A stretch of 64,000 nt of DNA, taken from NCBI GenBank assembly GCA_001871445.1, contig MNVD01000014.1, forward strand, positions 28,776 through 92,775, read 5' to 3'. The position numbers and the translations under genes are program-made. The notes beneath the pieces were generated by a model, which ran no database searches, was not told the DNA's origin, and saw nothing but the letters and a program-made list of their open reading frames with translations. Positions 17,033 through 56,327 of the stretch are shown in pieces. Each line of letters begins with the position of its first letter. Position 1 is the stretch's first letter. This DNA is from Candidatus Magasanikbacteria bacterium CG1_02_41_34. Its GTDB lineage: Bacteria > Patescibacteriota > Patescibacteriia > Magasanikbacterales > UBA922.

Positions 17033-17043
17033 CAAGTAGTTGC

Positions 17044-25172: not shown

Positions 25173-25189
25173 CACGTAACAATTGTTAT

Positions 25190-25798: not shown

Positions 25799-25927
25799 AT
25801 TCTTCCCCTACGAGGGGGAGCTAGAGGGGGTCTTTAGTACAAAAGACTGTATAGGATATACTATGAAGTGATTTCTTGCTAAAGACCCCACCTAACCTCC
25901 CCTGATAGGGGAGGAATATATTATTCT

Positions 25928-33459: not shown

Positions 33460-33463
33460 ATCT

Positions 33464-36400: not shown

Positions 36401-39400
36401 ACCTGTTTACGAAAAAATGGATACTGGGACGGTAGCTCTTGTCAGGTGTGTTTTGGCGGGGGCAATTGGGTTGCGCAAGATGGCAATGCCACACAAGGAT
36501 CGTGTGTCTATTATGCGATTGATGCACCAGGAGAATCTGTCTCATGTCCTGCGTCGGCAAATGAATGTCGAGCCTATACCGGAAATGCTGGTAACAATGT
36601 CCGCCCAGTATTTGAAAGCGGGACGGATACGTTCGAACCTCTTGGTGATGATGCTGACTCACTGAGTCAAGCAAAATCTGCGTGGTCACCTGCTGATCAA
36701 GTGAGTATTGCGGCAGAGGCTCTCCAAGTAACATTCAATTCGCTCAGAGTCAATGGTGGTGCTGCTGCAAATAGCATTTCACGATCATTGCCGGCTGGAG
36801 CTTTCGAATCAAATACGGCGTACCAGCTGACATTTTGGGCACGGGGGACAGCGCAGACACTTAGTATTTCCTTGCAACAAGGTGATGATACCCGGTCGTT
36901 GACGACGGATCCTGTTACCAATACAAATCTTCCTATTTCTATTTCACAGACATGGCGAGCATATACGGTTGGCCCTGTGATATTTACCGGTGATGCCACA
37001 GCACCACTTGATCTTGTATTTCAGCGAGCAGGTGCATCAAACGGTATCTATTTCTTGGACAATGTTTCACTCTTGCGTACGGATGAAAATACCAATCGTA
37101 TCAAAAATTCATGGAAGACTGTCGAAGGATACGACGCACCAGCAGAATGTTTTGCTGATTCGCAAAATCCTCGTGGACCATTTCCTGGTGCAGCACTTGG
37201 CTGCCAAGAATACACGACCAGTCTTGGACAAACAGTATATGCAACAGGATTTGAACGACTCTGTAGAGAAAAAGCCGTAGGCTGTGCCCCATTGTGGGAC
37301 ACATTTAATTCTGATTCAACAGAAGCAGAGGTGTATAATGCGAGGTGTATCAGCGGTACATTGACACAAACACGGTATTCTCGAAATCCCGTTACTGCGG
37401 CAACAACATGTACGATCACGGTAGAAAGTTCAGAGTATACATGTTCTATTGCAGCAGGAGAGAGTTCCTGTGTGATTCCTGGGCCGATTCGTCTTTCATC
37501 GGATGAATTGATCACACCATTGAGTGCTCCTGGAACGGGTATACTAGTAATCAAAGAGGGTTCTGCTTCAGCATTGCATTTTGACAATCCTAGTTTCTTT
37601 GCTATTGTCGACAAATCAAGTGTCTATATTCCTGCAGACACGCCATTTGAATCTCCTGTATTTTTGACTGATACACCAGAATATATTTGTGCAGACAAAT
37701 ATCTTGGTTGTCGGGTGACAGGTCTCGAGGAACAGCATACGCCAGATAATGCAAGTGCGGTATCATATTCGTATACAGATCAGGGTGTGATCAATCTTCC
37801 TTCCACATATCTGGGTGATCAAGGGATTCTCTGTGTTCAAGATCAAGTTGCTTGTAGCGCTTTTACCACAAGTGATGGATCCACCAGTTATTTCAAGGAT
37901 CCTGCCGTCAATGCAAATAAACTGTGCGTGTATCAAGCTCCTCAAACAAATAATGTTGATGCACCTGAGGGATGGTTCCTCAAGTCTGTCGGGCATTGTA
38001 GTCAGGATGATGCTATTCTTTGTGATAGCAATGCTGCGTGTGGTGAAGGGAACACGTGTGTCGAGATTGGCGAATCAGAACCATGTTATCCAACATATCA
38101 GACAAATTTGGAAAGCTATGGTCTCTGGTCAAATGGATCGCAACAATATAGTGGTTATGTAGGGGAGTGTCCAGCGACACAAAATTTATGTACTGAGCTT
38201 GTTGATCCGTATGATGTAGATACGTCTGGCAAAAATCCTGATGGAAAACCATATTATGTTATCTATGATGATCAGGTAACTAAAAATGCGGATGAATGCG
38301 GCGGACAAGCAAGTCTCCGTGAAGGATGTGCTCTTTTTGATAATACCGAGGTTCCAACAAAATCATACGATACGGATGCTACATATGGATCCAGTGAGCA
38401 AAGAGCAGCAAAAGGCGACATTAATACACTCGTTGCGACAGTTTCGACAGACAAAAATGATGCGAATGTGCTTTTGAAAGTACAGCGAAATCGAGAGTGT
38501 AGTGAATGGCTTGCGTGTGAATCATATGAGCCGATTCAGACAGGAGATGGAAAACAAATATTTGCTTGTGAATCATTTGCTCGATGTATAGCCTTCGATG
38601 GTGTTGGGTGTTCGTCATGGGCAACAGACAATGGATCAACCAAACCATCAAATACATTTTTAAACCTAGACGTATATATCAGTCGTGATACGAGTTGGAA
38701 TGGTGCTGAATATACAGGATATTCACTGTACAACCGATTTGGATTGGGTGATCTCAAAATTATTAAGTTTTCTCAGAGTGAGCGTTTTTCGAATGCTGGT
38801 GTTGATGCCGATAATGGGTACCTCGGGTATGTTCTTTCTGATACCTATCTTACTGATAATCAAGGAGATACCTGCTTGAATGCGACCGTGGGAGATGTAT
38901 GTGGTATCAATGGGGAAGGACGTTGTATCAATACACAATGTGTTGTCCCCGCAGATGGTGCTTTTGATGCCAAGGATACGACTCTTTCTAATATTGCGAC
39001 AGCACTTGGTGTTGCCGAGTGTAAAGTCCCACCAGAACAAGATAGTCCATTTTCTTTTGATGTTATTCCACTCATTGAAAATAGAGATAAACATGGTTTT
39101 GCAAATAATAATGTTACTACAGATCTTGTACGATATACCTTTTCACACCGTCCTGCTGAGGTAAATGTTTGTCAAAGTGGTGATTGCACATGTAATTATG
39201 TGGCGGTTTCTTATGGTTCCTTAGTAAAAGATTATTGGGCATCAGACACGTATCACAAAAAGAGTAGTGATATTAGTCTGTGGGGTATTTGTACTGGTGC
39301 ATCTGAAACGGAAGGAGATTATTGTCGAGAAGATAATGACTGTAGTTTTGGGACATGTCAGAAAATAGATCGTATCGAGACACAAATAGGTTCGACAGGT

Positions 39401-42400
39401 CATTGTTTGGAATACGATTTTTCGAGGAAGATCTTTTCACCGAGTAGTGAACCACGGTATGCGTGTCTCACTTGGTACCCGTCTGATAAAAGCTTCGGGA
39501 ATGTAGACACCCGAAATCTTTTTTCTGCAGCAGGGTATGATCCTGCCATTGATGCATCAACCAGTAGTGGAGATACCGGAGGACAAGTGTATTGTACAAA
39601 CAGTTTTGGAAGAAGTGCCGGTGCATATGAAGGAGATGGTAATCTCTTGATACATCAGTTGTATGGAGGAGGATCAATGAAGAACGCTCCTGGATTACCA
39701 ATCGCTGCCTATGCGTATGATAGTCAGTCTTGTGCTCCTTTGACTATAGGACCAAATTCTGATAATCCATTTTTTAAGCAAAAAGCAGACGGAAGTATAT
39801 ATCTTCCAGAGTCATGGAGTCAGGTTGTCGGCTGTTCAATAGACTGGTTTTCAAAAATAAATACCAACCCTTTTGCGGGTTATGTCTGTGGGGCTCTGTA
39901 TGCTCATTCCTATAGTCGATCAGGAAATATCGATCCAAGTTGTGGATTAACAACCATACCTGAATATACACGAAAAGACTCTCTCAATTTCCTCTACAAT
40001 CTTATGTCCGGATTCGGATGGGAATTTATAGATAAAAATGCTGTGGTATTGCGCGTTGAAGGAGATACTTCTAGTGAATATTCTACCACGGGTGGACACC
40101 ACTTCGGTTATTGGGGTAAAGAAGATACATATCTTGTCAATGCTTTGGTCCCCAGTATGTCGATAATCGCTCAGATGAGGGATACACAGACACTCATGCA
40201 TCCACCGAGATTTGAGCTTACTGATGGTACATTTTCTTTTGACAACGCTGTACCAGTTGGAACTGGGGGAAATTTTATAGGGGTAAAAACAGATACGTTA
40301 TGTTTGCGTGCTGGGGGCTGTCCTTTTTACGAAGATTGGCCGACGCTTGCAACAGAAACTGAGGGATATCTTAATATACAGGCATTGAATTCTGTATACT
40401 TCATACCGTTACGCTCAACAGCTCCGTACAGTTCCCCTGTCATCTTCCAACCTGCAATTCTAAGTAAAGATCTAAAAATTGATTTTAGGGGACAACTTGG
40501 CACGAAACCAGAAGTATCAATATTATCGGCCCCTGATATGGTGGGTATTCCGGTTGGCCCAGATGCCACAACCAAAAGTACAAAAACGGCTGTAACGTCG
40601 TATAAATTGGAAAGAGATACTGCAAGTAATATTCCGTGCGATGGATTAGTTTCTTTTTGTTCCTATAGTGGGGGTTCTGATCTTGGTCAGGGAGAAAAAT
40701 ATACCTATACACCATCTAACACAGCAAATACTGATGATGCAGTAGCCTTTATTCAGTCAAAAAGAAATGAAGTTGCGACACGGTATGTTGTAGTATACTA
40801 TCCTCAGGAGCAGAATCTTTTACCATCATTTGTCAAAAATTCACCCAGTGAAAAGTTTACGAAACCTACATCTATAGAAACAGACCCATTTTCCGCCCAA
40901 TGTGTCTTCGCGGTAGGGAGTACTGTAAAAACAGATTATTTCGCTATAGGAATGGACTTTAATAAAGATGGAGAATTTCTAGGATATATCTCACGTAATT
41001 GTGGATATTATGGTATGCAAATGGCTGTCATCGCAACAATGAAGGATCAGTGTAGTGAATTTGTTAGTGTGTACAGAAATGTTGATCCGACCACTGAAAG
41101 CAACAAAGCCTGGACAAACCGGGTATGGAAAGGAACACAATATACACTCAAGGCAAGTTACACTGCACAGGTGTCGCAAGATGCGCAACATCCTCCATTT
41201 GGATCGTCACCATTTACAGAACAAGATATTACCACTGATGGCGCTGATTATAGAGCACAGGCGGCACTGTTAGCCTCTGTATTTACGAATTCAAAATTTG
41301 GTTATCCGTTCTTCTGTTACCCAGGCAACATAGCCAGTAGAAGTGTATTTGGTGATACCTCTCGCTGCGCATCACTAGTAGATGATGGATTTGATGCCAA
41401 TACTGTAGAAGCGTTCAGTGTGTTTAGCAATAAGGTGATGGGGGGGGGGTATTTCGACGGACCGTTTATTCATCCTTTCAATGGAGAAGAACTTCTATCT
41501 AGATTGTTTGCAAAATATTATGTAAAGAATGTATTCCCATTTGATACTGCTGTATCACTTGATTCACAGCATGGAGATTTGTATTATACGGATCCAGATA
41601 TGATTGAAGGAGCACATCTACAATATCCTCAGATATATTCGTTGAATCCTATCACTTGTTTCCCAAGAGAAAGCGCGATAAATTGTTCTGTTGCAAAAGA
41701 AAATGCGTTTTCTATCGGCGAAGCAGACAACGAGCAATATATTGGGAAAGGTACATATTCGGCAAAAGCACGGTTTTTCGCTTTTGCCGATGACAATCGT
41801 ATGCCTATTCGGCGTGTCATGATTGATTGGGATGATGGGGATACCACCAATAAAGGTGTGTTTGGAATGTATAAAAATAAAAAACCATATTGTGAGCCGA
41901 GCGACACACCTCCTACAGAGACATCTCTTGGATATTGTCGCAACCAAGCAACACGGGAATTTACACTTGTGACATGTCAGCAAGATTTGGACTGTCCAAC
42001 AGATGGAGAATATCATTGTTTACATACGTGGAGCAATACTCCTGAAGATGTCCAATATGGTATAGATGAACAAGTAGGTGGTGCAGAGTTTGTAGCGCCA
42101 CGGTTTGGAAATATGCCACGTGCATGTGATGCAAAACCATTTGAATATTATCATGCCTATGGTTGTGACAATCCTACACAAACAATATCCATGGTTCGTG
42201 ATCAACTGACAGATATAACCTACAACAAACTTATTGAAAGTGGATTGAATGATGGTAGTAAGATTTGTGTCTACCAACCGAAAGTGCAGGTACTTGACAA
42301 CTGGGGGTATTGTAATGGTAGTTGTAATGGAGCAGGGAATACTGGGTGTTATAATGATGATGGAATAGGTGGTATATTAGAATGTGATGCACCTGATTAT

Positions 42401-42451
42401 AGTACTCTCCATTGGACACCGTATCAGGGAATTATCGTAATTATCCCATAA
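33464..42451 (+). CDS. Giant (2995 aa) secreted Cys-rich surface protein.
   Basis: Uninterrupted frame over 9 kb. N-terminal signal/TM helix with AAY cleavage-like site. Many Cys and Gly residues, and one homopolymer G10. Start placed 5 nt after the upstream stop. Confidence 0.7.
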   Translation: MNRQRSIKKIKKAQAYIFVSLFLSFQLSFFVMSATQVQAAYVDPGIINIDLPRKVSEIQESVSKSLLSGVLGSLVNMASYFMRTLAYDTASYVASGGKGQGSLIFEKPFGEYIAGVAANSVGEAIDSLGKGFGVNLCAPPDLRLQAQLKVGLDRIYNPVTAAGKSLGNTSGTSASGPQSSCSWQKLKENWSDGIDVGVDINVAADFASEVNVTETDFGYALSAFQQLDSLKATQEKAAELESLVGNGFKSVTDLVSGHVNTPAQQIQDETKALTAKHQGELSSQQIAGIYSSGLWQVIPTAASVFLNTLTSQLLNRLFTGGLVPSEKERGQGVADFYAINSVISQRQVAQRAFSFLTAKTGVKDPSEYDILAEFSVCPSSPGLNNCIMNNDMKTAIDRALIGKPLTLYDAVFKEGFISPNTPLISPRRTADNESLDCYKENLCYSNIQKMRKARIMPLGMEIAALRSDPDNPWTIGEVLQGFEKCPTLNVDGSITSDITNFPFCHLVNPNWILRAPDVRCENRVYSPELLVPESPRRHEDCVDISTCLTEDENGNCVGDKYYGFCTQEKNVWFFPGDTCEPAFASCKAYTNQETRTIVSYLSRTLEYGSCNENAVGCLPYVTEKKAGTEEWKGTKDSIVGDKLSGAMQVLYLNDRITNRENTCPDTADGCTKFVGAERNSMTGAYIQDPAKAYIQDTTRLRSLKKAPNYLGCYDTTFTENSPEVNFPTTPLEIAVLTDDPRCDAYASVCLPEEVGCEAYTPAGGGEAVPGVVGDNFCPAACVGYDTFRQEKTNFESSEYPLYFIPANGTECSAQHVGCDEFTNIDDVSQGGEQLEYYSYIKQCEEPTGDNRSVYYSWEGSESTGFVLRVHTLAKVGSDYEFIPSSLQADFPPESPAYADDSSANLLENDGLCNETLYTNVLSGVPDAPRAFADCRALYDAKGVAYYRLLAETVTVSSACHPIRKTASRLVVSDDITSANTCLRKNGYWDGSSCQVCFGGGNWVAQDGNATQGSCVYYAIDAPGESVSCPASANECRAYTGNAGNNVRPVFESGTDTFEPLGDDADSLSQAKSAWSPADQVSIAAEALQVTFNSLRVNGGAAANSISRSLPAGAFESNTAYQLTFWARGTAQTLSISLQQGDDTRSLTTDPVTNTNLPISISQTWRAYTVGPVIFTGDATAPLDLVFQRAGASNGIYFLDNVSLLRTDENTNRIKNSWKTVEGYDAPAECFADSQNPRGPFPGAALGCQEYTTSLGQTVYATGFERLCREKAVGCAPLWDTFNSDSTEAEVYNARCISGTLTQTRYSRNPVTAATTCTITVESSEYTCSIAAGESSCVIPGPIRLSSDELITPLSAPGTGILVIKEGSASALHFDNPSFFAIVDKSSVYIPADTPFESPVFLTDTPEYICADKYLGCRVTGLEEQHTPDNASAVSYSYTDQGVINLPSTYLGDQGILCVQDQVACSAFTTSDGSTSYFKDPAVNANKLCVYQAPQTNNVDAPEGWFLKSVGHCSQDDAILCDSNAACGEGNTCVEIGESEPCYPTYQTNLESYGLWSNGSQQYSGYVGECPATQNLCTELVDPYDVDTSGKNPDGKPYYVIYDDQVTKNADECGGQASLREGCALFDNTEVPTKSYDTDATYGSSEQRAAKGDINTLVATVSTDKNDANVLLKVQRNRECSEWLACESYEPIQTGDGKQIFACESFARCIAFDGVGCSSWATDNGSTKPSNTFLNLDVYISRDTSWNGAEYTGYSLYNRFGLGDLKIIKFSQSERFSNAGVDADNGYLGYVLSDTYLTDNQGDTCLNATVGDVCGINGEGRCINTQCVVPADGAFDAKDTTLSNIATALGVAECKVPPEQDSPFSFDVIPLIENRDKHGFANNNVTTDLVRYTFSHRPAEVNVCQSGDCTCNYVAVSYGSLVKDYWASDTYHKKSSDISLWGICTGASETEGDYCREDNDCSFGTCQKIDRIETQIGSTGHCLEYDFSRKIFSPSSEPRYACLTWYPSDKSFGNVDTRNLFSAAGYDPAIDASTSSGDTGGQVYCTNSFGRSAGAYEGDGNLLIHQLYGGGSMKNAPGLPIAAYAYDSQSCAPLTIGPNSDNPFFKQKADGSIYLPESWSQVVGCSIDWFSKINTNPFAGYVCGALYAHSYSRSGNIDPSCGLTTIPEYTRKDSLNFLYNLMSGFGWEFIDKNAVVLRVEGDTSSEYSTTGGHHFGYWGKEDTYLVNALVPSMSIIAQMRDTQTLMHPPRFELTDGTFSFDNAVPVGTGGNFIGVKTDTLCLRAGGCPFYEDWPTLATETEGYLNIQALNSVYFIPLRSTAPYSSPVIFQPAILSKDLKIDFRGQLGTKPEVSILSAPDMVGIPVGPDATTKSTKTAVTSYKLERDTASNIPCDGLVSFCSYSGGSDLGQGEKYTYTPSNTANTDDAVAFIQSKRNEVATRYVVVYYPQEQNLLPSFVKNSPSEKFTKPTSIETDPFSAQCVFAVGSTVKTDYFAIGMDFNKDGEFLGYISRNCGYYGMQMAVIATMKDQCSEFVSVYRNVDPTTESNKAWTNRVWKGTQYTLKASYTAQVSQDAQHPPFGSSPFTEQDITTDGADYRAQAALLASVFTNSKFGYPFFCYPGNIASRSVFGDTSRCASLVDDGFDANTVEAFSVFSNKVMGGGYFDGPFIHPFNGEELLSRLFAKYYVKNVFPFDTAVSLDSQHGDLYYTDPDMIEGAHLQYPQIYSLNPITCFPRESAINCSVAKENAFSIGEADNEQYIGKGTYSAKARFFAFADDNRMPIRRVMIDWDDGDTTNKGVFGMYKNKKPYCEPSDTPPTETSLGYCRNQATREFTLVTCQQDLDCPTDGEYHCLHTWSNTPEDVQYGIDEQVGGAEFVAPRFGNMPRACDAKPFEYYHAYGCDNPTQTISMVRDQLTDITYNKLIESGLNDGSKICVYQPKVQVLDNWGYCNGSCNGAGNTGCYNDDGIGGILECDAPDYSTLHWTPYQGIIVIIP

Positions 42452-43065: not shown

Positions 43066-43363
43066 GGCGGTCGCTCCTTGTCCCGACTGAGTCGGGACGG
43101 AAAGGGAAGGGTTGAGTTCGGACAGACGATGACACATCATCATTTCTCGGAACCCAATCCTTCTGTAGTGGAGGACGCCTTGTTGTTCTTCTCACACACC
43201 ATTATGTGATATCCCATATCCATATATGACATATAGGTAAAGGATACGATTGAAAAAGAACGAGATATATATTTCCCTCAGAAGAGAAACATTCCTCCAA
43301 ATTGAGCATAGTATAAAAAATATGATTTGTCAATATGTCAAGGGGATAACATTCTTCACGTAA

Positions 43364-43393
43364 CACGCCGTGCCTGCCGGCAGGCTGGTAACA
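43364..43393. repeat. Left copy of a 30-bp perfect inverted repeat containing the palindrome GCCTGCCGGCAGGC.
   Basis: cacgccgtgcctgccggcaggctggtaaca; its exact reverse complement lies at 44160-44189. Confidence 0.8.
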
Positions 43394-43588
43394 AGTTTGT
43401 AGCGCACGGGTTTGGTTTGCAAAACGACAGTCTTGGGTATGCAATGCTATCCATTATATATTTTTTTACCCTGTTAATACCTCCTTGTTACATGTTATGT
43501 GATTTGTGTTTCGTGAAGTTACGTGTATATTGACATGCCAGCCTAATTCCGACATACTAGATATATCTATACACCTAACTTCACACAT

Positions 43589-44053
43589 ATGGAGGAATCA
43601 ACCACAAAAAAACTTACCCTTGACGACAAAGTGGATATTCTTATAGAAAAAGTGGATGGGAATACCAAAAACATAGACTCTCTCACAGATACCCTTTCAG
43701 AATTTATGGGCTTTGTTCGGGATAACATGGCGACAAAAGATGATATTGAAGACCTTAGGAAAGAGGTAAAAGGTGATAGTGCTACCCTCAGGACAGAATT
43801 AAAAGGCGAGATGGCTGAGATGAAGGAAGAAATTGGGGACTTGCGTTTGGAGATGCAAGCGGGCTTTCGTGGCATAGAAAAGGAGTTAATGGACATCAAA
43901 GCATCGCTCGACCGTCTTGAGAAAAAAACACAAGAAGATGATGATGCAACAGTACAAGAAATCTTCCTTCTCAAAAAACGGGTCGCCCAGGTTGAGAAAG
44001 AATTAGTACTTCTCAAAAAGGATCAAAAACATCACGTAACACATAGCACGTAA
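43589..44053 (+). CDS. Small coiled-coil protein (154 aa).
   Basis: Heptad-like K/E/L-rich sequence. The last codons are encoded by the CACGTAACA repeat array. Flanked by the 30-bp inverted-repeat pair. Confidence 0.45.
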   Translation: MEESTTKKLTLDDKVDILIEKVDGNTKNIDSLTDTLSEFMGFVRDNMATKDDIEDLRKEVKGDSATLRTELKGEMAEMKEEIGDLRLEMQAGFRGIEKELMDIKASLDRLEKKTQEDDDATVQEIFLLKKRVAQVEKELVLLKKDQKHHVTHST

Positions 44054-44159
44054 CATGTAGCATGTAACATGTCTGTAATGCGTTAGTTGAGTGGCACACA
44101 GTGGTCTTGGATATGCAATGAACCCATTGTATATTTTTTGCTCTTGTTAGCTTCGACCA

Positions 44160-44189
44160 TGTTACCAGCCTGCCGGCAGGCACGGCGTG
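44160..44189. repeat. Right copy of the 30-bp inverted repeat.
   Basis: tgttaccagcctgccggcaggcacggcgtg is the reverse complement of 43364-43393. Confidence 0.8.
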
Positions 44190-44565
44190 CTAAGTGATAT
44201 GTGTATCGTGACATAGGATTTGCTTGTACATACATGAATGGAGTAACGAACGCAAGTTCGTTTGTTAGCGGCGAGTACCTTGCTAATAGACGAACTTGCG
44301 TTCGTCACTCCTGCAGTATGGTAGGAAATATTTTGATCTTGACTATGTCGAGACAGGATGATAGCACGTAGCACGTTTGTAAGGAGAAGGTCTTCCATAT
44401 GCAATTCTACCCATTGCATATTCACCCAAACCCATAGCTCCGACCTTGCTACATGTTTCGTGTTACGTGCTATGTGCTCCATGTTCCGTGTTATAAAATC
44501 TGTCCCCATTTCCCTCTACGCAAGTCAAAATTTGTGATATACTCTGTGTATATTTATCCTGTTCC

Positions 44566-47500
44566 ATGCTTGCACGGATAACACACTACAATCGAGCCTT
44601 TTTTTCGCTATGTAAGAAACTTCTCCCGAAAGGACGTGCGAAGTTTTTTGTATTGCCGGTTGTTGGTGCGATTGCAAGTATTGGTATTTTCGTGGTCGTC
44701 GATCCTGCACATGCACAGGGGTTTTTAGAAGATATCATAAATGGCATGATGGTCTTTTTTAGCTGGGTCATGTTTATTCTTGCGCGATTGTTTATTGGTA
44801 TTACGATTTTTGCTCTCAAGTTTTTTATAGAAGTCGCATCATACAACAATTTTATTAATACGCCTACCGTCAAGATCGGTTGGTTCCTTGTGCGTGATGT
44901 AGCAAATATGTTTTTTGTGGTACTGCTTCTCGTCATTGCCTTTGGGACGATCCTAGGCCTGGAGCAATATGAATGGAAAAAGACACTGATCAAGTTGATT
45001 CTTGCGGCAGTCTTTATCAATTTTTCCAACATGATCGCACAGCTCATCATTGATGTGGCGCATGTCTTTACTATTACCTTTGTCAATGCAATATCAGCGA
45101 CAGCGGGAGGTAATATTATTCAGTTGTTCAATATCGACTCGGTGTATAAAATCACCGGGGCAGACAAGCTCGGCGTAGGGGGGGATCTTAAAATAGAGGC
45201 ATTTGCCGCTTCGGTAGCGTCATTTTTGCTGGCACTCATCATGATGACGACGATGGGCGCGTTTGCGATCGTCATGGCGGCTCGCATGGTCATTTTATGG
45301 GTACTCATCATTTTGTCTCCTCTCGCCTATATTTTTCAAGTTATTCCCCAAACACAAAAGTATGCTCAAGAGTGGTGGAGTGAATTTACCAATCATGTCA
45401 TCGTCGCGCCAGTTATGGTGTTTTTTCTCTGGCTTGCGTTTGCGACACTCAATAGCTCCGTACCACAGCTTGATTTTGGAAGTGCTGGAGCAGAAGCGAC
45501 AAGCGTTATAGGGAGTGGGGCACAAGTCGTTGACGCGCAGAAGAAATTGAGTATTTCAGATGCAACGACCTGGGAGAATCTTGCGAGCTTTATGATTGCT
45601 ACGGTCTTTCTTATTATTGGTCTGAAAACTGTGCGGAATCTCGGTGTTGTTGCTGGTGGTTTGACCTCGAGTGCAACAGGATTTGTGAAGAATGTTGCGA
45701 CTATTGCGACGGGAATTACTGCTGCTCGTGCTGTTGGTAGATATGCAAAGAAGAAGGGTGATGAAAATTTTCTTCAGCCTGTACGTGAATTTGGTGATCG
45801 TGTCAAGAAACGTGTCAATATTGCCAGAGCAAAAGTGCCGTATTTACGAAAAATTCCGTTTATTGGGAGAATGGGTCAATTGCGTCGTCAAAAATTAAAT
45901 GAGGAACTCGACCGAAATAGTAAAATGACAGATGAAAATATTATTGATACTATAAGTCGAAAGGAAAATATAGGGACGTTGGATAGAATTGGAAATAAAT
46001 TTGGGTTTGGTATTGAGTCGTGGAAGAAAAAAAGATATAAGCTCGAAGCTGAATCTGATATTATACAAGCAGAAAAAGCAGAATCAAAACGAGAGCGTAA
46101 AGCAAAAGCTGCGGCTGCTTTTGCTGATAAAGCAAATAAAGTAATCAAAGAAAATGGCGGAGAAAAACAAATTGCAGCTGAAAAAGAAAAAGCGCTAAAC
46201 ACTTTTCGAAATGCTGAGGAGAATAAAGATGAGCTTGCTGAAGTTGGAGATGACTGGGCGAATGGAAAAGTGAATGCTGACGCCATGAAAGCGCAGGCAA
46301 TACGGACTCTCCAAGAGGAAACAGAAGAAATTTTGAAAGAAGGATTTGAGGCTACTGATGATGGTAAAAAATTGGAAGCCCCTGTAGCTGCTTTGCAGAC
46401 GCATCTTCAGGGTGTTACAGAAACGTATAAAACAGAATTTCAAAAATATTTGAATGGGCTTGCCGCAAAAGATTTGGAACCAATCATAGCAGATGATTTT
46501 ACTGATAAAGACAAACAAAAAATTGCTGATGCAAGAAAGGCTGATCCAACAAAACAGGATGCTGAAATTATACAAACATTAGTGCGTAATGGACAAATTG
46601 CTGTCGATCCTGAGAGTGAAACAGGAAAAGCGCTTCGTGAAGAATTTGAACAAACGACGACTGGCAAAGGAACTATGGCTGCTATTGCTGGTGTAAACAC
46701 TAACTTAGAAGCATCCCGTACTGCGAAACAGGTCGCGCTTGACGCGTATAAGAAAGAAAACGGTTCAAAAGCAGAAGAAAAAGCATTAGCAAAGTCTGGT
46801 TTTAAAGAGAGAGTCGCTAGTGCAAAGAAAAAAGTAATAAATGAAGAAAACGTAAAACGTCGAGAACAGGCAGAAAGGGCGTTTGGCGAAACAGAACCTG
46901 CAAAGAAGCTTGTAGCAAAGTCTCAAGAAAATATTCTTCAGTTAGCAAATGATATCGCTAAAGGTAAAACAAAATTGCCTGGAAATCCAGATCTCAAAAC
47001 ACGACAAGGTATTGCCGAGCGATTGCGTATGCAGGCAAAAACTATGGGTGCTGACAGACAAGAAGCCGAGAAAAAGCGAGCAGATGCTCAAATTGCTGGT
47101 ACATTACAGAAAACTGAATTTGGCCAAGCTATGATGATGCAGCAGGATATCGCAGAGAGGGCAGAAGCTGCTTCTAAAGATACGGCAGAGATATTTAAGA
47201 ATGAAAAAATTACCAAAGAACTCAAACATACAGCAGAATTGTTAGCCCAAAAAATGAAACTCGGGGGAGGCGAAGCTGCTGCGGCGATTGATAAAGCGTT
47301 GAAAAAAAATATATATGCTCAGTCTGCCGAGCAATCTCAAATACTCGAAAAGACTAAGTTTGATAGAGGACGACAAGACACATTGCTGAAAGAAGCTGCG
47401 AATGGGCTTGCTGTTGAGAAAAAAAATAATGGAGAGGCTACTCCTACTCAGGCTTTGATTCCTTATATAAAACGAGACATCGAAGCATTGAGCGGACAAG

Positions 47501-48813
47501 AAGCCGATGCTGCAGGAGCATATGCTCAAAAGTTATTGGCTCATATTTTGTATGATGCTTCTGCTGGAAAAATGACAGGAGAACAGCACGCTGCTCTTAT
47601 GACGACTGTTATGAGTCTTGCCAAAGGTGGATATCTGGACGATGCGGTAGGATCTGTGTTGAAAAATGTTGATAAGTTAGACACGGGCGTAATAACGGAA
47701 GATTCTGATGAAGGAAAACAAACCAAAAATTTGAAGACTATTTTTAACCAGTTGGGTATTTTGCAGAAAGATGCACAAGGTGCATGGATATACAATAGGA
47801 CCAACGCAGCACGATTGCAACAGCTTGTGGTGTCTGGTGGAGACGCTGCGCTTGTGAGTGACAATAAAATGATTAGTGATATCCAGCAACAAGCACAAAG
47901 AGATGGTAGCGTAAAACTCAAAAATGATCAGAAAATTGAAGCAGCTGATTCGTACCAAGCAATGCTTGAAAAGTTAAGTGCCGCGGGTATGTTGTTATCA
48001 GGCACCGTAGATAAATTCAAAGAAAAACTTGAGGCTTCACAAGAGTTTATGCAAGAAGGGGCAAGTTATTTCAAACGAGAGGCACTCAATACCAATCATC
48101 CTGAAGTCGGTGGTCATTTTAAATATGATGATGATCTTGGCATGTACCGCATGTCGACAGTAAAGGAAGCTGATGATTTGATGGCGGCAGAACAGGCAAA
48201 GAGAAAAGGAAAATTAGCAACACAAATTCATGGATTGGGAACAATTGGTTTGGTAGATGGTCAGTTGAAAGCTATTGATCGGCAGGCCGCGACTAGTATC
48301 TTGGAAGAATTGAAGTCTTCTCAGGCAACCAGACAAATGCCACAGAGAACTGTCAATCGTATGTTGGGGTATGAGCAAAATGAAGAGATGGCAACCGATG
48401 CACAGGGAAATGTGATAGTAGGAAAGAGTGACGCGTATATAGACAAAAATCATGGAAATTTTGATAATTATATGAAGAACATTGTTCTTCCTATGCTTCT
48501 TGCCAACTCTGAATCACTCAAGTACATCGCGAGAGAAAAGGCACAACATGTGGATACCATAAGTTCTGATCGTGGTATGGCTCGAATATCTATTGCTGGT
48601 CATATAACAGGAGAAACCAATAGCGCTTTATTGAAAGACGTTATTAGGTATGCAACAGAAAACGGACGTAACTTATTGAATGATGCTGATTTAACCACGT
48701 TGCGACGAGGTGTGGAAGCATCGGAGAAAAAGGAAGCTACGTTAGATAAGAGGGGAAGGGTAAGTAAGGCTGATCAAGAAGCAGAAGAGGAACGACAATC
48801 TCGCGAGTCTTGA
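44566..48813 (+). CDS. VirB6/TrbL-like polytopic membrane protein with a roughly 1000-aa K/E/A-rich coiled-coil C-terminal extension (1415 aa).
   Basis: Signal peptide (AHA-QG), then 6-8 hydrophobic helices over the first 400 aa, then a low-complexity charged alpha-helical tail. Extended -10 TGaTATACT at 44537-44545. Confidence 0.5.
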   Translation: MLARITHYNRAFFSLCKKLLPKGRAKFFVLPVVGAIASIGIFVVVDPAHAQGFLEDIINGMMVFFSWVMFILARLFIGITIFALKFFIEVASYNNFINTPTVKIGWFLVRDVANMFFVVLLLVIAFGTILGLEQYEWKKTLIKLILAAVFINFSNMIAQLIIDVAHVFTITFVNAISATAGGNIIQLFNIDSVYKITGADKLGVGGDLKIEAFAASVASFLLALIMMTTMGAFAIVMAARMVILWVLIILSPLAYIFQVIPQTQKYAQEWWSEFTNHVIVAPVMVFFLWLAFATLNSSVPQLDFGSAGAEATSVIGSGAQVVDAQKKLSISDATTWENLASFMIATVFLIIGLKTVRNLGVVAGGLTSSATGFVKNVATIATGITAARAVGRYAKKKGDENFLQPVREFGDRVKKRVNIARAKVPYLRKIPFIGRMGQLRRQKLNEELDRNSKMTDENIIDTISRKENIGTLDRIGNKFGFGIESWKKKRYKLEAESDIIQAEKAESKRERKAKAAAAFADKANKVIKENGGEKQIAAEKEKALNTFRNAEENKDELAEVGDDWANGKVNADAMKAQAIRTLQEETEEILKEGFEATDDGKKLEAPVAALQTHLQGVTETYKTEFQKYLNGLAAKDLEPIIADDFTDKDKQKIADARKADPTKQDAEIIQTLVRNGQIAVDPESETGKALREEFEQTTTGKGTMAAIAGVNTNLEASRTAKQVALDAYKKENGSKAEEKALAKSGFKERVASAKKKVINEENVKRREQAERAFGETEPAKKLVAKSQENILQLANDIAKGKTKLPGNPDLKTRQGIAERLRMQAKTMGADRQEAEKKRADAQIAGTLQKTEFGQAMMMQQDIAERAEAASKDTAEIFKNEKITKELKHTAELLAQKMKLGGGEAAAAIDKALKKNIYAQSAEQSQILEKTKFDRGRQDTLLKEAANGLAVEKKNNGEATPTQALIPYIKRDIEALSGQEADAAGAYAQKLLAHILYDASAGKMTGEQHAALMTTVMSLAKGGYLDDAVGSVLKNVDKLDTGVITEDSDEGKQTKNLKTIFNQLGILQKDAQGAWIYNRTNAARLQQLVVSGGDAALVSDNKMISDIQQQAQRDGSVKLKNDQKIEAADSYQAMLEKLSAAGMLLSGTVDKFKEKLEASQEFMQEGASYFKREALNTNHPEVGGHFKYDDDLGMYRMSTVKEADDLMAAEQAKRKGKLATQIHGLGTIGLVDGQLKAIDRQAATSILEELKSSQATRQMPQRTVNRMLGYEQNEEMATDAQGNVIVGKSDAYIDKNHGNFDNYMKNIVLPMLLANSESLKYIAREKAQHVDTISSDRGMARISIAGHITGETNSALLKDVIRYATENGRNLLNDADLTTLRRGVEASEKKEATLDKRGRVSKADQEAEEERQSRES

Positions 48814-48856
48814 TGTCCATTGGTAACAACACTATATCATTGCAATTAGTCTTCGT

Positions 48857-50356
48857 ATGATGTTAGAAGAAAAACAATTTGAACAATTTCACACGAGTGA
48901 CTTTATAAAAAGTGTGGAGGCATTTCGTGCACTTGAACAATTTTTTGCAGGGCAAACTGTTGTTCGTTTTTCAGAAGATCCACAGTCATTCCCTGTCATG
49001 ATTCGTGATATTGCTGATATCGCAGATACCTATACAAAAGAAACGTCGGAAGCCTATCCGTTTGTCCAAGAAAAGAGTGTGCTGGAAATGTTTGATATGG
49101 ATACGGTCACCACATTTGTGAAGACATGGAATGCCTGGATTGCTTCATATACACAGATACCCGACACATCGTCAATTGAAGATCAGACGTATCGAGTGGT
49201 TTCTTCTGCCGACATGAATAATTTTGCAAAGAAGTGCGGTGTTGCTCCAGACAGTATCAATTTTTTGACTACCCAGTATGATGGCTTTTCCGATGTGGTA
49301 AAACAGAATATCTCACGTACATTTGGAGACGTTGAAAACAGTGGTGAGGATATGATAGCTCAGATAGAACTTCTTGCTGGATTTTTGAAAGTTTCTTCTA
49401 TACAAACATATTCGACAGATGAATTTAAAGCAGTACTTGCTGGAGATATTTCTACATACGAAGGACCTCGTCTTGCTGCTACGATTCGGTATATGCTCGA
49501 TAATGATGAGGGACTAGCGTTAAGTGCGATTGCGTATGAACATTTGCATGTGGTGGATATCTACAAAAAATCGACATATACTTGGGACGAAGCTTTTTAT
49601 CTGACGGCGTTGCTCCATGCACCGTTCATCCATTTCCGACGGTTGTATTGGGAATTTCAAGAATTTTGGCTGATGTTTTATTTCGTCAAGGCACAAATTG
49701 CTGGTGTTCCATTGACACATATTTTGCAAGACTATTTGTATCAAGAGACAGCGACACTCCTAGAGTATGCAGAAGAAAATATTTTTTTGATGAAGAGTCT
49801 TGATAAAAATAAGGAAATGTTGCCTCTTGGATTGGATGGAGAAGCCATTGCGCTCAGTGCTTTGTATAAGGATTACATGCTTCGATTGGGAGACAAATTC
49901 AATGATGGTTACCGAAGAGAAGAATATATCCAAGAGCATGTGGTACACGTGAAACACAAAGAATTATGGAAGCATGTTCTCAGAACAGTGTTGTATATCT
50001 ATAGCCATATAAAATCTGTAGATCTTATTGAAAAAAATAGGGGATCCGAACCGACAGAAAAAGAAATATATGACAATCAACTTCGACATCTCTTGACGTG
50101 GTGGATGGATGAAGATTTTTGGCAACTGATTGCAGACTTCTTTACAAAACCACACACGCCACCTGCTATTGTCCCCTTGCACGCAGTTATAGCACAGATT
50201 CAACAACACGAATCACTCGAAGATCCCAAAGTGCAAGATAAAGCTGTCCGATTCAACGAATTTTTGCGTGAGCAGGGTGTGTTAAAAGAGGAGCAAGATA
50301 TTGTTGTGTATAATGAACAGACAACGACATTTGAATGGAATAAAGATATTTTCTAA
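48857..50356 (+). CDS. Hypothetical cytoplasmic protein (499 aa) within the T4SS-like locus.
   Basis: Clean ORF; no NTP-binding or other motif recognised. Confidence 0.4.
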   Translation: MMLEEKQFEQFHTSDFIKSVEAFRALEQFFAGQTVVRFSEDPQSFPVMIRDIADIADTYTKETSEAYPFVQEKSVLEMFDMDTVTTFVKTWNAWIASYTQIPDTSSIEDQTYRVVSSADMNNFAKKCGVAPDSINFLTTQYDGFSDVVKQNISRTFGDVENSGEDMIAQIELLAGFLKVSSIQTYSTDEFKAVLAGDISTYEGPRLAATIRYMLDNDEGLALSAIAYEHLHVVDIYKKSTYTWDEAFYLTALLHAPFIHFRRLYWEFQEFWLMFYFVKAQIAGVPLTHILQDYLYQETATLLEYAEENIFLMKSLDKNKEMLPLGLDGEAIALSALYKDYMLRLGDKFNDGYRREEYIQEHVVHVKHKELWKHVLRTVLYIYSHIKSVDLIEKNRGSEPTEKEIYDNQLRHLLTWWMDEDFWQLIADFFTKPHTPPAIVPLHAVIAQIQQHESLEDPKVQDKAVRFNEFLREQGVLKEEQDIVVYNEQTTTFEWNKDIF

Positions 50357-50358
50357 CT

Positions 50359-51570
50359 ATGGCAGAGCCGACCGTCCTCATAAAAAAAGCCGATGGAACG
50401 AGCGAGCGAGTGCCGTTGTCTTTGCTTAGAAAAAAAACAAGCGAGAATACTACTCCACCAACCCCAAACAACCCCATACCCACAGAAGAAAAAATATCGC
50501 AACCTGCAACCAGTGATCAGAAACCAGTTTTAGACGTATCCTCAGAAAGTTCTGATGCAGCAGAACCAAAAGAATTTGTTCCACCCAACAGCGAACACCG
50601 TTCAGCACCCCAAACGCCAAATCCTGCACCCACAAAAAAACAAACATTTCTCACCGCACCACCAGACCACGACACGCCAAGACAGACAGACGTATCTTCA
50701 AAAAGCGATCTCCCCATGGAAGAATCACCACACGAACTCGCAACCACGACGCCTGTTTCTGATTACTTCACTGATCTTGCAAAAGCACATGAGTGGAACG
50801 AACGTGATCATAGATCTCCACTCGAAGAGACAATCAATCATGAAGATGTAACAAATCCTCTTTCAACGACGATGCCGTCTGCCCGGTTTGAGGATGTTAC
50901 TATGGTGACAAAAAAACTTTCATTTTCAATACCAGTAGATCTTGAAAGTCGATTGCATTCTCTGATACAGTCACGACTCAAAGATATCCGAAGTGATGAA
51001 CAAGTTATCGACTATGCGACACGTCCTACAGAACATGGTGGTCTTGCGCTCACGAGTGAACAGGCACAGGAGCTCATACAAGTAATTCAGACGTCACTCG
51101 AGACATCTCGACAAGAACATATCCCCGCACCAAGAAGAACGGTCCAACAAACACCCTCAGCACAAAAAACATCGACAATTTTCGCAGACGCACCAACAAT
51201 GTCGCCATCTTCTGTGGGAAAAGACACGTCGTTTACAGACATTCATGCTCCAGAACCACTACAAAAAATTGTCGGGCCACTCGAGGAAATAGGGCAGATC
51301 ACATTGACTGATTTTCGTCGCTATGGAAAAGATCCCGCAAAAGCTACCGCAATACTGAAAGCGAAAATAACTGTTATCCGAGATGAATCTTACCTTGAGT
51401 TTCAAAAAGTAAAAGTGGCATGGACACAAAGTCCGCTGTATGGGCAGTATCTCTCACATATCGCACAGTCGCTCTCAGAAAAAACACCGCTTGCCATCTC
51501 AGACAGCGATGATATGTCTCCTGATGATATGAAAGAAATTGCCGTGTTTAGTGCGATGTTACGCATGTAA
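50359..51570 (+). CDS. Hypothetical Pro/Thr/Ser-rich protein (403 aa).
   Basis: Start 3 nt after the upstream stop. Low-complexity N-terminal half. The stop is embedded in a CACATAACA array. Confidence 0.4.
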   Translation: MAEPTVLIKKADGTSERVPLSLLRKKTSENTTPPTPNNPIPTEEKISQPATSDQKPVLDVSSESSDAAEPKEFVPPNSEHRSAPQTPNPAPTKKQTFLTAPPDHDTPRQTDVSSKSDLPMEESPHELATTTPVSDYFTDLAKAHEWNERDHRSPLEETINHEDVTNPLSTTMPSARFEDVTMVTKKLSFSIPVDLESRLHSLIQSRLKDIRSDEQVIDYATRPTEHGGLALTSEQAQELIQVIQTSLETSRQEHIPAPRRTVQQTPSAQKTSTIFADAPTMSPSSVGKDTSFTDIHAPEPLQKIVGPLEEIGQITLTDFRRYGKDPAKATAILKAKITVIRDESYLEFQKVKVAWTQSPLYGQYLSHIAQSLSEKTPLAISDSDDMSPDDMKEIAVFSAMLRM

Positions 51571-51728
51571 CACATAACACATAACACATAACAAGAGGCT
51601 GATTATGGGATTGGGATACTATGCAATGGATAACATCGCATGATAAAGATCCATATATTCCTCAGCCAACCCTCGCATTACAAACTTGTTACGTGCTACG
51701 TGCTACGTGCTACGTGTTACGTGAGTAT

Positions 51729-52163
51729 ATGCAACAATTCGTTGTTCCACAATTTATCGATGTTGAAGACAAGATTTTTGGTCCGATTACCACGAGGCAA
51801 TTTGTTATTTTACTTGCTGCCGGCATTACTATTTTCGGAACATATAGACTTGCCGATACGACATTGTTTATTTCGATTGCGGTTCTTGTAGGTATTATTG
51901 CGATCGTCTTTTCGTTTGTCAGAGTAAATGGTCAGGTGTTTCATGTTTTTCTTCTCAATATTATTCAGACCATGAAACGTCCAGGACTTCGTATTTGGCA
52001 CAAATCATATACAGACAAAGATTTGGAATATTTTATGCACAGTGGTGATGACGATGAAATTTCTGATCATGTAATCAAAAAGGCTGTGCACAAACAACAT
52101 ATTAAAGACCTGTCGCTGGTAGTAAATACAGGGGGATATTATAGACCTGATGAACATCTGTAG
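51729..52163 (+). CDS. PrgI/VirB3-like small membrane protein of type IV secretion systems.
   Basis: MQQFVVPQFIDVEDKIFGPITTRQFVILLAAG followed by two TM helices, which matches the PrgI-family N-terminus. The ORF track start at 51621 reads through the repeat array and is rejected. Confidence 0.5.
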   Translation: MQQFVVPQFIDVEDKIFGPITTRQFVILLAAGITIFGTYRLADTTLFISIAVLVGIIAIVFSFVRVNGQVFHVFLLNIIQTMKRPGLRIWHKSYTDKDLEYFMHSGDDDEISDHVIKKAVHKQHIKDLSLVVNTGGYYRPDEHL

Positions 52164-52223
52164 ATTGGGTGACCTTTCGTTCTGTTCATGATATACTTGA
52201 CACACTGCGTGTCAACGCATTGT

Positions 52224-52907
52224 ATGAAAGATACCAAAAAAAAAGCAAAGAAACATACGCGTCCTGCGACACAAACCTATCTTCCAATTGCGGAGATTCG
52301 AGATGGCGTTGTCGTATTGAAGGATGGAACGCTGAGAAAAGTGCTGATAACATCGAGCATAAATTTTGCATTAAAATCAGAAGATGAACAAAACGCGCTT
52401 ATTTCTTCGTATGTTAGCTTTCTCAATTCGCTTGAATTTCCTATACAGATTGTTGTACAGTCGCGTCGTTTGCAGATCAAGCCATATCTTGCAAAACTGG
52501 TAGAAAAAGAAAAAAAACAAACAAGTGAGTTGTTGCGAGTACAAATTGCCGATTATCGTGCCTTTGTGGAGGAGCTTGTAGATATCGGGCAGATCATGAC
52601 AAAACGGTTTTATGTGGTTGTTCCGTATGATTCATTATCAAACAGAAAAAAAGGTTTTTTTGCTCAATTTAAGGAAGTTTTGAAGCCTGCGTTCACGGTT
52701 CGACTAAAGGATGAACGATTTCAAAAGAGAAAAGAAGATTTGGAAGTACGTGTGCGTCAGGTGATGGGAGGTCTCGATGGCATGTCACTCCAGACCGTCG
52801 AGCTTGACACCGAGGCACTCATCGAGCTCTACTATATGGGCTACAATCCCGACATTGCCTTTGCCGAAAGCCTCGGAGATGTCGATGCATTGCAGATAGA
52901 CACATAA
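52224..52907 (+). CDS. VirB4/PrgJ/TraC-type conjugative ATPase, N-terminal domain, encoded as a separate ORF.
   Basis: YLPIAEIRDGVVVLKDGTLRKVLITSSINFALKSEDEQNALISSYVSFLNSLEFPIQIVVQS is the characteristic VirB4 N-terminal segment. Stop TAA at 52905-52907. Confidence 0.6.
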   Translation: MKDTKKKAKKHTRPATQTYLPIAEIRDGVVVLKDGTLRKVLITSSINFALKSEDEQNALISSYVSFLNSLEFPIQIVVQSRRLQIKPYLAKLVEKEKKQTSELLRVQIADYRAFVEELVDIGQIMTKRFYVVVPYDSLSNRKKGFFAQFKEVLKPAFTVRLKDERFQKRKEDLEVRVRQVMGGLDGMSLQTVELDTEALIELYYMGYNPDIAFAESLGDVDALQIDT

Positions 52908-52978
52908 CACGAATCACGTAACACATAGCACGTAACAATTCTTAAAAAATGTGTTATGTGCTACGTGATATGTGATTC
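52908..52978. repeat. 71-bp palindromic element built from CACGTAACA / CACATAACA repeats, separating the two VirB4 ORFs.
   Basis: Left arm cacgaatcacgtaacacatagcacgtaaca, AT-rich loop aattcttaaaaaat, right arm tgttatgtgctacgtgatatgtgattcgtg. About 26 of 30 arm positions are complementary. Confidence 0.7.
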
Positions 52979-52990
52979 GTGAAAAATAGT

Positions 52991-56190: not shown

Positions 56191-56240
56191 GTGTTTTTTT
56201 GTATAAAAAAAACAAAGTTGTATATGACTTTGTTTTTTTG

Positions 56241-56327
56241 CGGAGAGTGGAGGATTCGAACCCCCGGTCCTCTTTCAAGGACGACAGTTTAGTAAACTGC
56301 TGCTATAGACCGCTCAGCCAACTCTCC
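56241..56327 (-). tRNA. Class II tRNA (long variable arm), Ser-type; anticodon reads ACU in my fold, which is unusual.
   Basis: GGAGAGTTGGCTGAGCGGTCTATAGCAGCAGTTTACTAAACTGTCGTCCTTGAAAGAGGACCGGGGGTTCGAATCCTCCACTCTCCG. Discriminator G, T-loop TTCGAAT. Anticodon stem GCAGT/ACTGT with loop TTACTAA. Confidence 0.55.

Follow-up and report, generated by a model that had tools for sequence, protein, structure and literature searches.

Tandem CAYRTAR heptads at a type IV secretion-like locus of Candidatus Magasanikbacteria are arms of a dispersed palindromic element family with parallels to 23S rRNA intervening sequences

Introduction

Why do short tandem repeats crowd the gene boundaries of a type IV secretion system (T4SS)-like locus in a patescibacterium? 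The locus lies in a 64,000-nt stretch of contig MNVD01000014.1 (positions 28,776 to 92,775, forward strand; GenBank assembly GCA_001871445.1) from Candidatus Magasanikbacteria bacterium CG1_02_41_34, hereafter the window, to which all coordinates refer unless another contig is named. The initial annotation, made from the letters and their open reading frames (ORFs), described degenerate arrays of 7-9-mers between 43357 and 52981 as specific to this locus, and proposed either an operator array for a dedicated DNA-binding regulator or a miniature repeat family that had colonised the locus. We found that the arrays form the arms of palindromic elements, that these elements make up a dispersed family not tied to T4SS genes and that the ORF-bearing relatives in it carry genes of the PF05635 family. 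The closest known kind is the intervening sequence (IVS) of 23S rRNA, which has the same architecture and cargo at another host site; the window elements are not classical members of it. We suggest, with a probability of roughly 0.55, that the arrays belong to ORF-less IVS-type elements in mRNA spacers, with arms that form a stem processed by RNase III, and that they are not T4SS operators.

Results

The repeat unit in the window is a tandem CAYRTAR heptad with a period of exactly 7 nt. Over 41 heptads the successive positions held C (40), A (40), C or T (33 and 7), G or A (27 and 13), T (32), A (37) and A, G or T (21, 12 and 8); positions 3 and 4 vary by transitions only, around a CpG (CG, TG, CA, TA). 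A three-heptad pattern with at most two mismatches matched the window 28 times, with 0.14 matches expected from shuffled sequence and none of 100 shuffles reaching 28, and Tandem Repeats Finder (TRF) reported an array of period 7 or 14 at each site. A stringent TRF/autocorrelation detector overlooked most of the degenerate arrays, and surveys of junction length and of hairpins were used in its place. All arrays listed by the initial annotation are present, displaced by no more than a few bases from the positions it gave; the list had missed a degenerate reverse array at 44186-44211 and quoted one unit too few for the array at 51686-51723.

Each forward array in the window is followed by a loop and then by a reverse-complement array, giving five modules, M1 (43357-43525), M2a (44033-44211), M2b (44362-44494), M3 (51564-51723) and M4 (52901-52981). 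By their common plan, 3-6 CAYRTAR heptads in tandem are followed by a loop, which measures 11 to about 100 nt, and by 3-7 reverse-complement heptads, with the polarity 5'-CAYRTAA...TTAYRTG-3'. Heptad copy number differs between arms, between modules, and between the window and the related contig L036. In M3 the internal identity is 100% for the forward arm and 96% for the reverse arm, and arms that are each 96-100% uniform in this way point to independent homogenisation by slippage. BLAST between modules showed that loop sequence as well as heptads is held in common, on either strand; the M3 loop matches the loop of L036 module A over 74 nt (76% identity, minus strand) and is likewise inverted relative to M1. 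Because loop sequence and heptads are shared in both orientations, each module is a copy of a single composite, palindromic element, which upholds the miniature repeat family of the initial annotation.

The same heptad was found on other contigs. A metagenome scan for 3.3 CAYRTAR heptads returned at least 120 contigs; among the matches listed, many were plain arrays and about 20 contigs had convergent elements of the heptad family. No T4SS homologues were found near the convergent elements on these contigs, except on L088, which is an L036-like contig. The convergent CAYRTAA elements lie between rpsL and rpsG, after rpsO and groEL, before pth and murI (yidC/murI), and next to rpsU, HU and HSP20 genes, in positions that are transcribed and non-coding, and the heptad is kept across contigs of 31-57% GC. 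Over all sequence examined, 28 neighbouring array pairs were convergent and 2 divergent, both of the latter formed by adjacent elements; arms were mostly of 4-5 heptads (28-35 nt) and loops of 4-145 nt. Viral contigs held 72 simple arrays and no convergent pairs.

Two further placements concern rRNA and an HU leader. On L083 a convergent CAYRTAA element occupies the 16S rRNA leader, about 90-220 nt upstream of the 16S gene (8661-10166, minus strand), between a TTGACA promoter-like site and the mature 16S. The 5' untranslated region (5'UTR) of the HU gene carries one or two tandem elements in two related contigs (L083, 4421-4499; L174, 9427-9590).

The related loci were compared junction by junction in a set of 80 loci retrieved with the VirB4-like protein, nearly all labelled Candidatus Magasanikbacteria or Patescibacteria. 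Only L036, of the same genus and with 82-87% DNA identity, has the same heptads; its modules occupy orthologous positions but have other heptad numbers and nested content. The junction of the 239-aa gene with the VirB4-like gene measures 156 nt in L036, with the hairpin H1 and the GC palindrome described below, versus 83 nt in the window, and L036 has an additional hairpin between PrgI and the 239-aa gene. In most species the two genes at the 239-aa/VirB4 junction overlap or abut (0 nt). About 20 species have an insert of 50-460 nt there, built of tandem units, a loop and inverted tandem units, the units being species-specific and 7-9 nt long (for instance GAATTTG, AAATCAT, CATTAAAA, CACTTNAG, TACGAAA and CTAATTA). 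Comparison with the empty sites of relatives revealed no evident direct repeat that would mark a target-site duplication at this junction, where the repetitive arms blur the element boundaries. Spacer expansion clusters by genome, with 3-5 expanded junctions in some genomes and none in about 50.

An earlier k-mer scan was biased to the T4SS block, from which its k-mers had been drawn, and was replaced by an unbiased hairpin survey of 1170 gene junctions from the 80 loci and the window. For co-directional junctions the hairpin frequency was 12% just upstream of VirB4 and 3% just downstream, with flanking values of 6-23% at 4.5-10.5 kb upstream and 3-12% at 3-9 kb downstream, and thus there is no excess in the T4SS-like core. 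The idea of a dedicated T4SS operator is hard to reconcile with this survey and with the lack of a spacer at these junctions in most relatives; the occurrence of the same elements beside unrelated housekeeping genes, in the 16S leader and in the HU 5'UTR argues against it as well.

One of the inserts led to PF05635. The 461-nt insert that L042 carries at the 239-aa/VirB4 junction encloses, between (AAATCAT)4 arms, a 130-aa ORF; this ORF scored 77.5 bits against PF05635, the family of the 23S rRNA intervening-sequence protein (IVP). Searching with this ORF by tblastn detected more PF05635 genes in related loci, all of them flanked by short tandem units in inverted arms; in L031 such an element stands directly before the PrgI start. 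CAYRTAA heptads form the arms around such a gene in L195/L273, L195 being one of these loci, and in L275. The L195 protein had 1579 database homologues at E <=1e-5, named four-helix-bundle or S23 ribosomal protein, and the names attached to several of them point to Patescibacteria. Seven PF05635 genes, from six look-ups, are all co-directional with their neighbours and all within convergent tandem-unit arms. The neighbours match TrmB, Aminotran_5/NifU_N, Phage_integrase/UvrD-helicase, polyprenyl synthase/GcpE and a thiamine pyrophosphate (TPP)-enzyme domain, and the arm units are CAYRTAA (two genes), CATTAAAA or CATTAAAG (two genes), CATTTAAA, AACACTNN and TAAAGTTA. The inverted-repeat score of the flanks had a median of 15 for PF05635 genes (below also IVP genes) versus 7 for 109 control genes of the same loci, and 13 of 14 IVP genes exceeded the control 95th percentile (Mann-Whitney p=2e-8). 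Arm unit type partly tracks IVP relatedness or subfamily. We infer that the window modules are ORF-less miniature members of this PF05635-bearing family, which is widespread in Patescibacteria and the full-length copies of which have the gene in the loop. The literature searched held no description of tandem-unit hairpin elements in genomes of the candidate phyla radiation (CPR), nor of PF05635 genes with tandem-unit arms outside rRNA.

One genome can carry several PF05635 genes with different arm unit families. L279 has two of them (1590-1934 and 3001-3411) 1 kb apart, with TAAAGTTA and AACACTNN arms, and L034 has two (265-585 and 16970-17305) with unlike arm units.

The modules of the window differ in the state of their arms and in what their loops hold. 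The forward arm of M1 (43357-43393, plus strand) consists of CACGTAACACG and TAACA, interrupted by a 21-nt GC palindrome at 43368-43388, the removal of which restores CACGTAACACGTAACA; M1 also takes part in a 48-nt inverted repeat, with a partner at 44150-44197 that is 88% complementary. The M1 loop (43435-43467, plus strand) has hairpin H1 (GGGTATGCAATG..CATTATATA) followed by T7, a weak terminator-like structure, and the reverse arm (43485-43525, minus strand) has about 5 heptads, with a TTGACA -35-like hexamer at 43530, 4 nt beyond the arm.

M2a begins with a forward arm of 6 heptads (44033-44074, plus strand); the 154-aa gene (43589-44053) ends inside this arm, which contributes its final 7 codons and its stop. 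Its loop has H1 with T6 (44109-44139, plus strand), and its reverse arm (44160-44211, minus strand) is made of TGTTA, the 21-nt GC palindrome (44165-44185) and CGTGCTAAGTGATATGTGTATCGTGA, the degenerate array being at 44186-44211. M2b has 2 forward heptads (44362-44375, plus strand; TAGCACGTAGCACG), a loop with H1 (CCATATGCAATT..CATTGCATATT; 44395-44422, plus strand) without a T-run, and a reverse arm of about 7 heptads (44446-44494, minus strand) that lies 71 nt upstream of the VirB6/TrbL-like gene (44566-48813) and is orthologous to L036 1201-1233 (92.5% identity over 40 nt).

The forward arm of M3 (51564-51594, plus strand) is CATGTAA followed by three CACATAA units, its first heptad giving the stop codon of the 403-aa gene. 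The M3 loop (51595-51685) is an inverted copy of the M1/M2b/L036-A loop with H1 on the opposite strand, and the reverse arm (51686-51723, minus strand) has 5 heptads, three CTACGTG between TTACGTG, open in all frames. M4 has 5 forward heptads (52901-52937, plus strand), the first providing the stop codon of the 239-aa gene, and 4-5 reverse heptads (52949-52981, minus strand), and the true start of the VirB4-like gene, at 52991, lies 9 nt beyond. The M4 inverted repeat has 30-nt arms that are 87% complementary around a 14-nt loop (dG -38.9, z -8.3).

The arrays distort the gene calls through shifted stops, false N-terminal extensions and spurious ORFs. The initial annotation had noted that arrays encode the stop codons of the 154-aa gene (44051-44053) and the 403-aa gene (51568-51570); this is correct, and the 239-aa gene (52905-52907) joins them, all three stops lying within forward arrays. 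It had likewise recognised a spurious N-terminal extension of the PrgI-like ORF: the long version, from 51621, is an artefact of the open M3 reverse array and the true start is the ATG at 51729. The VirB4-like ORF is extended by an open reverse array in the same manner. Between the end of a reverse arm and the start codon that follows there are 0-15 nt, which hold no Shine-Dalgarno sequence. The ORFs at 43202-43444, 44013-44183 and 44162-44509 (minus strand), of 80, 56 and 115 aa, are almost wholly repeat-module sequence and very likely spurious. A general rule, by which forward arms supply stops in three frames and reverse arms supply start codons, was considered and dropped; it holds for CAYRTAA, and other unit families have stops in reverse arms too.

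The loops bracketed by the arrays contain other small palindromes. Hairpin H1 (GGATATGCAATG..CATTGCATATCC) is found in the loops of M1, M2a and M2b, inverted in M3 at 51604-51641, and also in L036. The 21-nt GC palindrome (CCAGCCTGCCGGCAGGCACGG) sits within a heptad in M1, in M2a and in L036 (about 9951-9971), always right after TTAC and with its orientation to the heptad unchanged, and CACG|..|TAACA becomes a perfect CACGTAACA once it is taken out. Its appearance is that of a very small element that prefers a certain target, or of an arm variant that was copied. The arrays of opposite orientation had been thought to bracket promoter-like modules; the palindromes are what the loops hold, and promoter-like sites in the region are at chance level (27 versus 23.7 expected).

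All modules can be folded into hairpins, the sense strand of M1 being the weakest (z about -1.3) and the others ranging from z -3 to -8.3. An intrinsic terminator, with a G+C-rich stem and a U-tract, was not recognised in the modules: no T-run follows the reverse arms, and M4 is followed by A5. T-runs occur only with the nested H1 of M1 and M2a (T6-7) and with the copy at 15629-15672 described below (T8). The ordinary terminators of the genome (42464-42499, 60158-60193 and 19205-19251) are perfect hairpins between an A-run and a T-run and bidirectional, and in these respects clearly unlike the heptad modules.

Hairpins of a distinct family, about 70 nt in length (GGAGTAACGAACGC...GCGTTCGTCACTCC; 30-nt arms, 90% complementary), are present at 44240-44311 (72 nt) and in L036 at 8395-8465 and 8970-9030. 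In L036 this hairpin is nested in the loop of a heptad module and, in addition, occupies the spacer between PrgI and the 239-aa gene, a spacer that measures just 25 nt in the window. Rfam, at gathering and E-value thresholds, had no family for the modules and gave only chance miRNA-like matches on the 44240-44311 hairpin.

Contrary to the initial annotation, which had seen them nowhere else in the window, heptads are not confined to the T4SS-like block. Between prfA and sua5/tsaC stands a mini-element of 24 nt (25166-25189; CATGTAACACGTAACA-ATTG-TTAT), which provides the prfA stop codon (25170-25172) and is immediately followed by the sua5 start ATG at 25190. After ndk, a heptad-like array runs into a hairpin at 15629-15672 (plus strand; GCACGTACC-AAAT-GGTACGTGC with T8) and serves as the terminator, and a heptad remnant lies at 1517-1535. 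The label locus-specific is right for the local concentration of modules within the window and fails for the family, which occurs elsewhere and, as the prfA/sua5 mini-element, within the window itself.

The T4SS-like block comprises genes for a VirB6/TrbL-like protein (1415 aa), PrgI, a VirB4/TraG-P-loop ATPase and a ComF-like protein, followed by HSP20 and VanW, and is flanked by housekeeping genes, e.g. those for elongation factor G (EF-G), release factor 1 (RF-1), Sua5, NDK, KsgA and BipA. None of the ORFs in the 64 kb was identified as a ribbon-helix-helix (RHH) or helix-turn-helix (HTH) gene, leaving the in silico search for a dedicated regulator without a candidate; the sole transcription factor in the window is an extracytoplasmic function (ECF) sigma factor at 61963-62607. 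No transposase was found in the window.

Other features of the window and L036

A 3014-aa ORF without a Pfam match (33407-42451) lies directly upstream of the T4SS-like block. The 1415-aa VirB6/TrbL-like protein is fast-diverging, with 55% identity to its L036 counterpart versus 98% for VirB4. At 25796-25920, between sua5/tsaC and a DUF4015 glycosyl-hydrolase-like gene, there is a G+C-rich palindromic element (CCCCTACGAGGGGGAGCTAGAGGGGG...) with 49-nt arms, 76% complementary, which has no relation to the heptads; in L077 the spacer between the 239-aa gene and VirB4 is taken up by a palindrome of similar kind, likewise rich in G+C. L036 has, at 820-889 on the minus strand and between two heptad modules, a tRNA/tmRNA-like 3' end (GGTTCAACTCCCCCTCACTCCACCA), in the place of which the window has the 154-aa coiled-coil gene; the region scored 18.6 bits as tmRNA against an Rfam threshold of 47, and ARAGORN found nothing in it. 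Three tRNA-Ser genes are clustered (56240-56327 in the window and 13369-13456 in L036) and kept in both genomes, one of them with the anticodon ACT, an unusual unmodified-A34 anticodon for serine.

Discussion

The comparison with known systems starts from the 23S rRNA IVS. In Coxiella it is 428-444 nt long, has a 28-bp stem of terminal repeats with three or four tandem GACAGAT heptamers, the number varying by strain, and carries the S23p ORF in its loop; RNase III excises it by cutting at the first repeat, and it is of unknown origin, considered selfish or possibly once mobile (PMC4990558). IVSs of the Coxiella, Leptospira, Brucella and Xanthomonas type (PMC4990558) resemble the window family in an inverted-repeat stem of about 28 bp with variable tandem heptamers, in a loop that holds a PF05635 four-helix-bundle gene or is empty (short IVSs), and in depending on host read-through transcription and being regarded as selfish. 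The window arms of 3-7 heptads agree with the inverted repeats of about 25-35 bp of IVS stems, and the optional PF05635 gene is present in the elements of relatives, the window copies being ORF-less. The two differ in site, classically helices 9, 25 or 45 of 23S rRNA whereas here mRNA spacers, 5'UTRs and the 16S leader, and in unit, GACAGAT in Coxiella versus CAYRTAA. The element would thus work like an IVS and is no classical rRNA IVS.

Under the reading we favour, an RNase III-processed IVS-type element, each copy would be co-transcribed with its host genes in the spacers before and inside the T4SS-like operon, and its arms would pair into a long imperfect stem. Cutting of that stem by RNase III would remove the loop and separate the neighbouring cistrons, so that the transcript would probably be split in front of the VirB6-like gene, between the 403-aa gene and PrgI, and between the 239-aa gene and VirB4. 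Arm length would drift by replication slippage and other small palindromes would nest in loops and arms. A new stop for the upstream gene, from the forward arm, and false N-terminal extensions, from an open reverse arm, would be side effects.

Several observations weigh against this interpretation. The sense-strand stem of M3 has A.C mismatches (CACATAA x3 against CTACGTG x3), where the antisense strand would have G.U pairs, which argues against strong selection for perfect pairing of the sense RNA. Same-contig arms of different elements are as similar to each other (17.7) as arms of one element (about 15.8) or more so, and no compensatory change between arms was found beyond the genome-level heptad preference; with the two arms of an element resembling each other no more than they do other arms of the contig, pairing would follow from a common consensus and not from compensatory change. 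No element was found inside a 23S gene, the contigs examined holding 16S and no 23S genes, and no IVP gene was found in the five modules or anywhere in the 64 kb. As the arms are short motifs, common ancestry with the IVP-bearing elements is likely rather than proven. Finally, the five modules are concentrated within 10 kb of the window and conserved in L036, a concentration that may reflect local spread or inheritance.

The best surviving alternative, which we consider rather unlikely, is selfish or neutral repeat DNA, either MITE-like palindromes (MITE, miniature inverted-repeat transposable element) or slippage-born heptamer microsatellites, with no role in RNA processing and tolerated only in spacers. 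The missing arm-arm compensation would suit it, as would the patchy presence among species, clustered by genome, the independently homogenised arms of M3 (100% and 96%) and the other palindromes nested within elements. Heptanucleotide repeats are, according to Mrazek as cited in PMC4679880, the commonest prokaryotic class of long simple sequence repeats (SSRs) and are ascribed to slippage. Correia elements (CREE/NEMIS) and other MITEs (PMC10969869) are, like the window family, short dispersed intergenic palindromes co-transcribed with their neighbours, which cluster, nest and alter gene ends, and the inverted repeats are where RNase III cuts Correia transcripts (PMC10969869). The window family also has inverted-repeat ends and several dispersed copies in either orientation (five modules and remnants). 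MITEs have unique terminal inverted repeats, target-site duplications and transposase-bearing insertion sequence (IS) parents, whereas here the ORF-bearing relatives encode only the PF05635 protein, the arms are tandem heptads and no duplication is evident at the 239-aa/VirB4 junction. Neutral repeat DNA accounts poorly for the strict polarity and the narrow arm size (4-5 heptads), for one heptad kept across contigs of 31-57% GC, for positions that the window and L036 have in common even though their DNA differs by about 15%, and for the PF05635 association with its parallel to RNase III-processed IVSs.

We hold it less likely still that the heptads are single binding sites of an RNA-binding protein (S1, Csp or CsrA-type) or of the element's own IVP, the arrays forming a protein platform. 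Cyanobacterial STRR heptamers are another class of tandem-heptamer repeats. The TAACTGA intergenic heptamer repeats of Beggiatoaceae, Cyanobacteria and Bacteroidetes, with one inverted case in 170 sets, have S1, Csp or CsrA-type proteins as proposed readers (PMC4679880). They share with the window family intergenic tandem 7-nt units that adjoin start codons without a Shine-Dalgarno sequence, overlap with upstream stops (the forward orientation giving stops in all three frames) and a patchy phylogenetic distribution (PMC4679880). They differ in being direct arrays, whereas the window has convergent pairs around a loop, in the unit, and in having no reported PF05635 link; with 28 convergent and 2 divergent pairs the window arrays fall outside the TAACTGA/STRR direct-repeat class. 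A platform would be consistent with the conservation of C1, A2, T5 and A6 in each heptad in the absence of arm-arm compensation, with reverse arms lying 0-15 nt before starts without a Shine-Dalgarno sequence, as for TAACTGA, and with the partial tracking of IVP subfamily by arm unit type. Against it, the convergent layout is what a stem needs and a linear platform does not, related genomes use 7-, 8- and 9-nt units, no candidate binding protein was identified and the window has no IVP gene.

An omega/ParB-type RHH protein acting on double-stranded DNA at operator or centromere-like arrays, whether T4SS-dedicated or global, is in our view very unlikely. The exact 7-bp period, the arms of 3-6 contiguous heptads in both orientations and the -35-like hexamer that the M1 reverse arm abuts would fit such a protein, and omega of pSM19035, an RHH ParB, has a 7-bp unit in arrays of at least 4 units in both orientations. 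Its sites are 7-10 contiguous WATCACW heptads, of which at least 4 are needed, and a gap abolishes function (PMC9499535). The consensus here is CAYRTAR and not WATCACW, and the arms are held apart by loops of 4-145 nt; the omega sites are contiguous, promoter-overlapping and next to the omega gene, none of which applies to the window arrays. Two modules, M3 and M4, sit within an operon, and copies on other contigs are found in an rRNA leader or separate genes for ribosomal proteins. Promoter-like sites occur about as often as chance predicts, the 64 kb has no RHH or HTH gene and most relatives have no spacer at these junctions. An assembly or sequencing artefact, for which only the general difficulty of assembling repeats speaks, is practically negligible, because orthologous arrays are present in independent assemblies, L036 (NCBI) and L088 (JGI), and elements of the same architecture occur in dozens of other metagenome-assembled genomes and metagenome contigs.

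Beyond the locus, we put forward a more speculative reading, to which we give a rather low chance: IVS-type elements could be, rather than something peculiar to 23S rRNA genes, a mobile hairpin family that in Patescibacteria invades any transcribed spacer, in rRNA leaders and 5'UTRs as well as in operons, the tandem arm units of 7-8 nt being recognition sites of the element's PF05635 (four-helix-bundle, Avd-like) protein, with unit and subfamily co-evolving.

Taken together, the analysis removes a tempting but wrong T4SS-operator annotation and draws a link between the heptamer-stemmed 23S IVSs, with their orphan S23p/four-helix-bundle gene, and tandem-repeat hairpins between ordinary CPR genes. 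If RNase III cuts the stems, many CPR operons would be post-transcriptionally split at inserted elements, and questions that date from about 1990, namely the source and mobility of IVSs and what PF05635 proteins do, would become testable in a far larger set of examples. The wider reading, if true, would give a function to the large orphan PF05635 family and would explain the source of rRNA intervening sequences.

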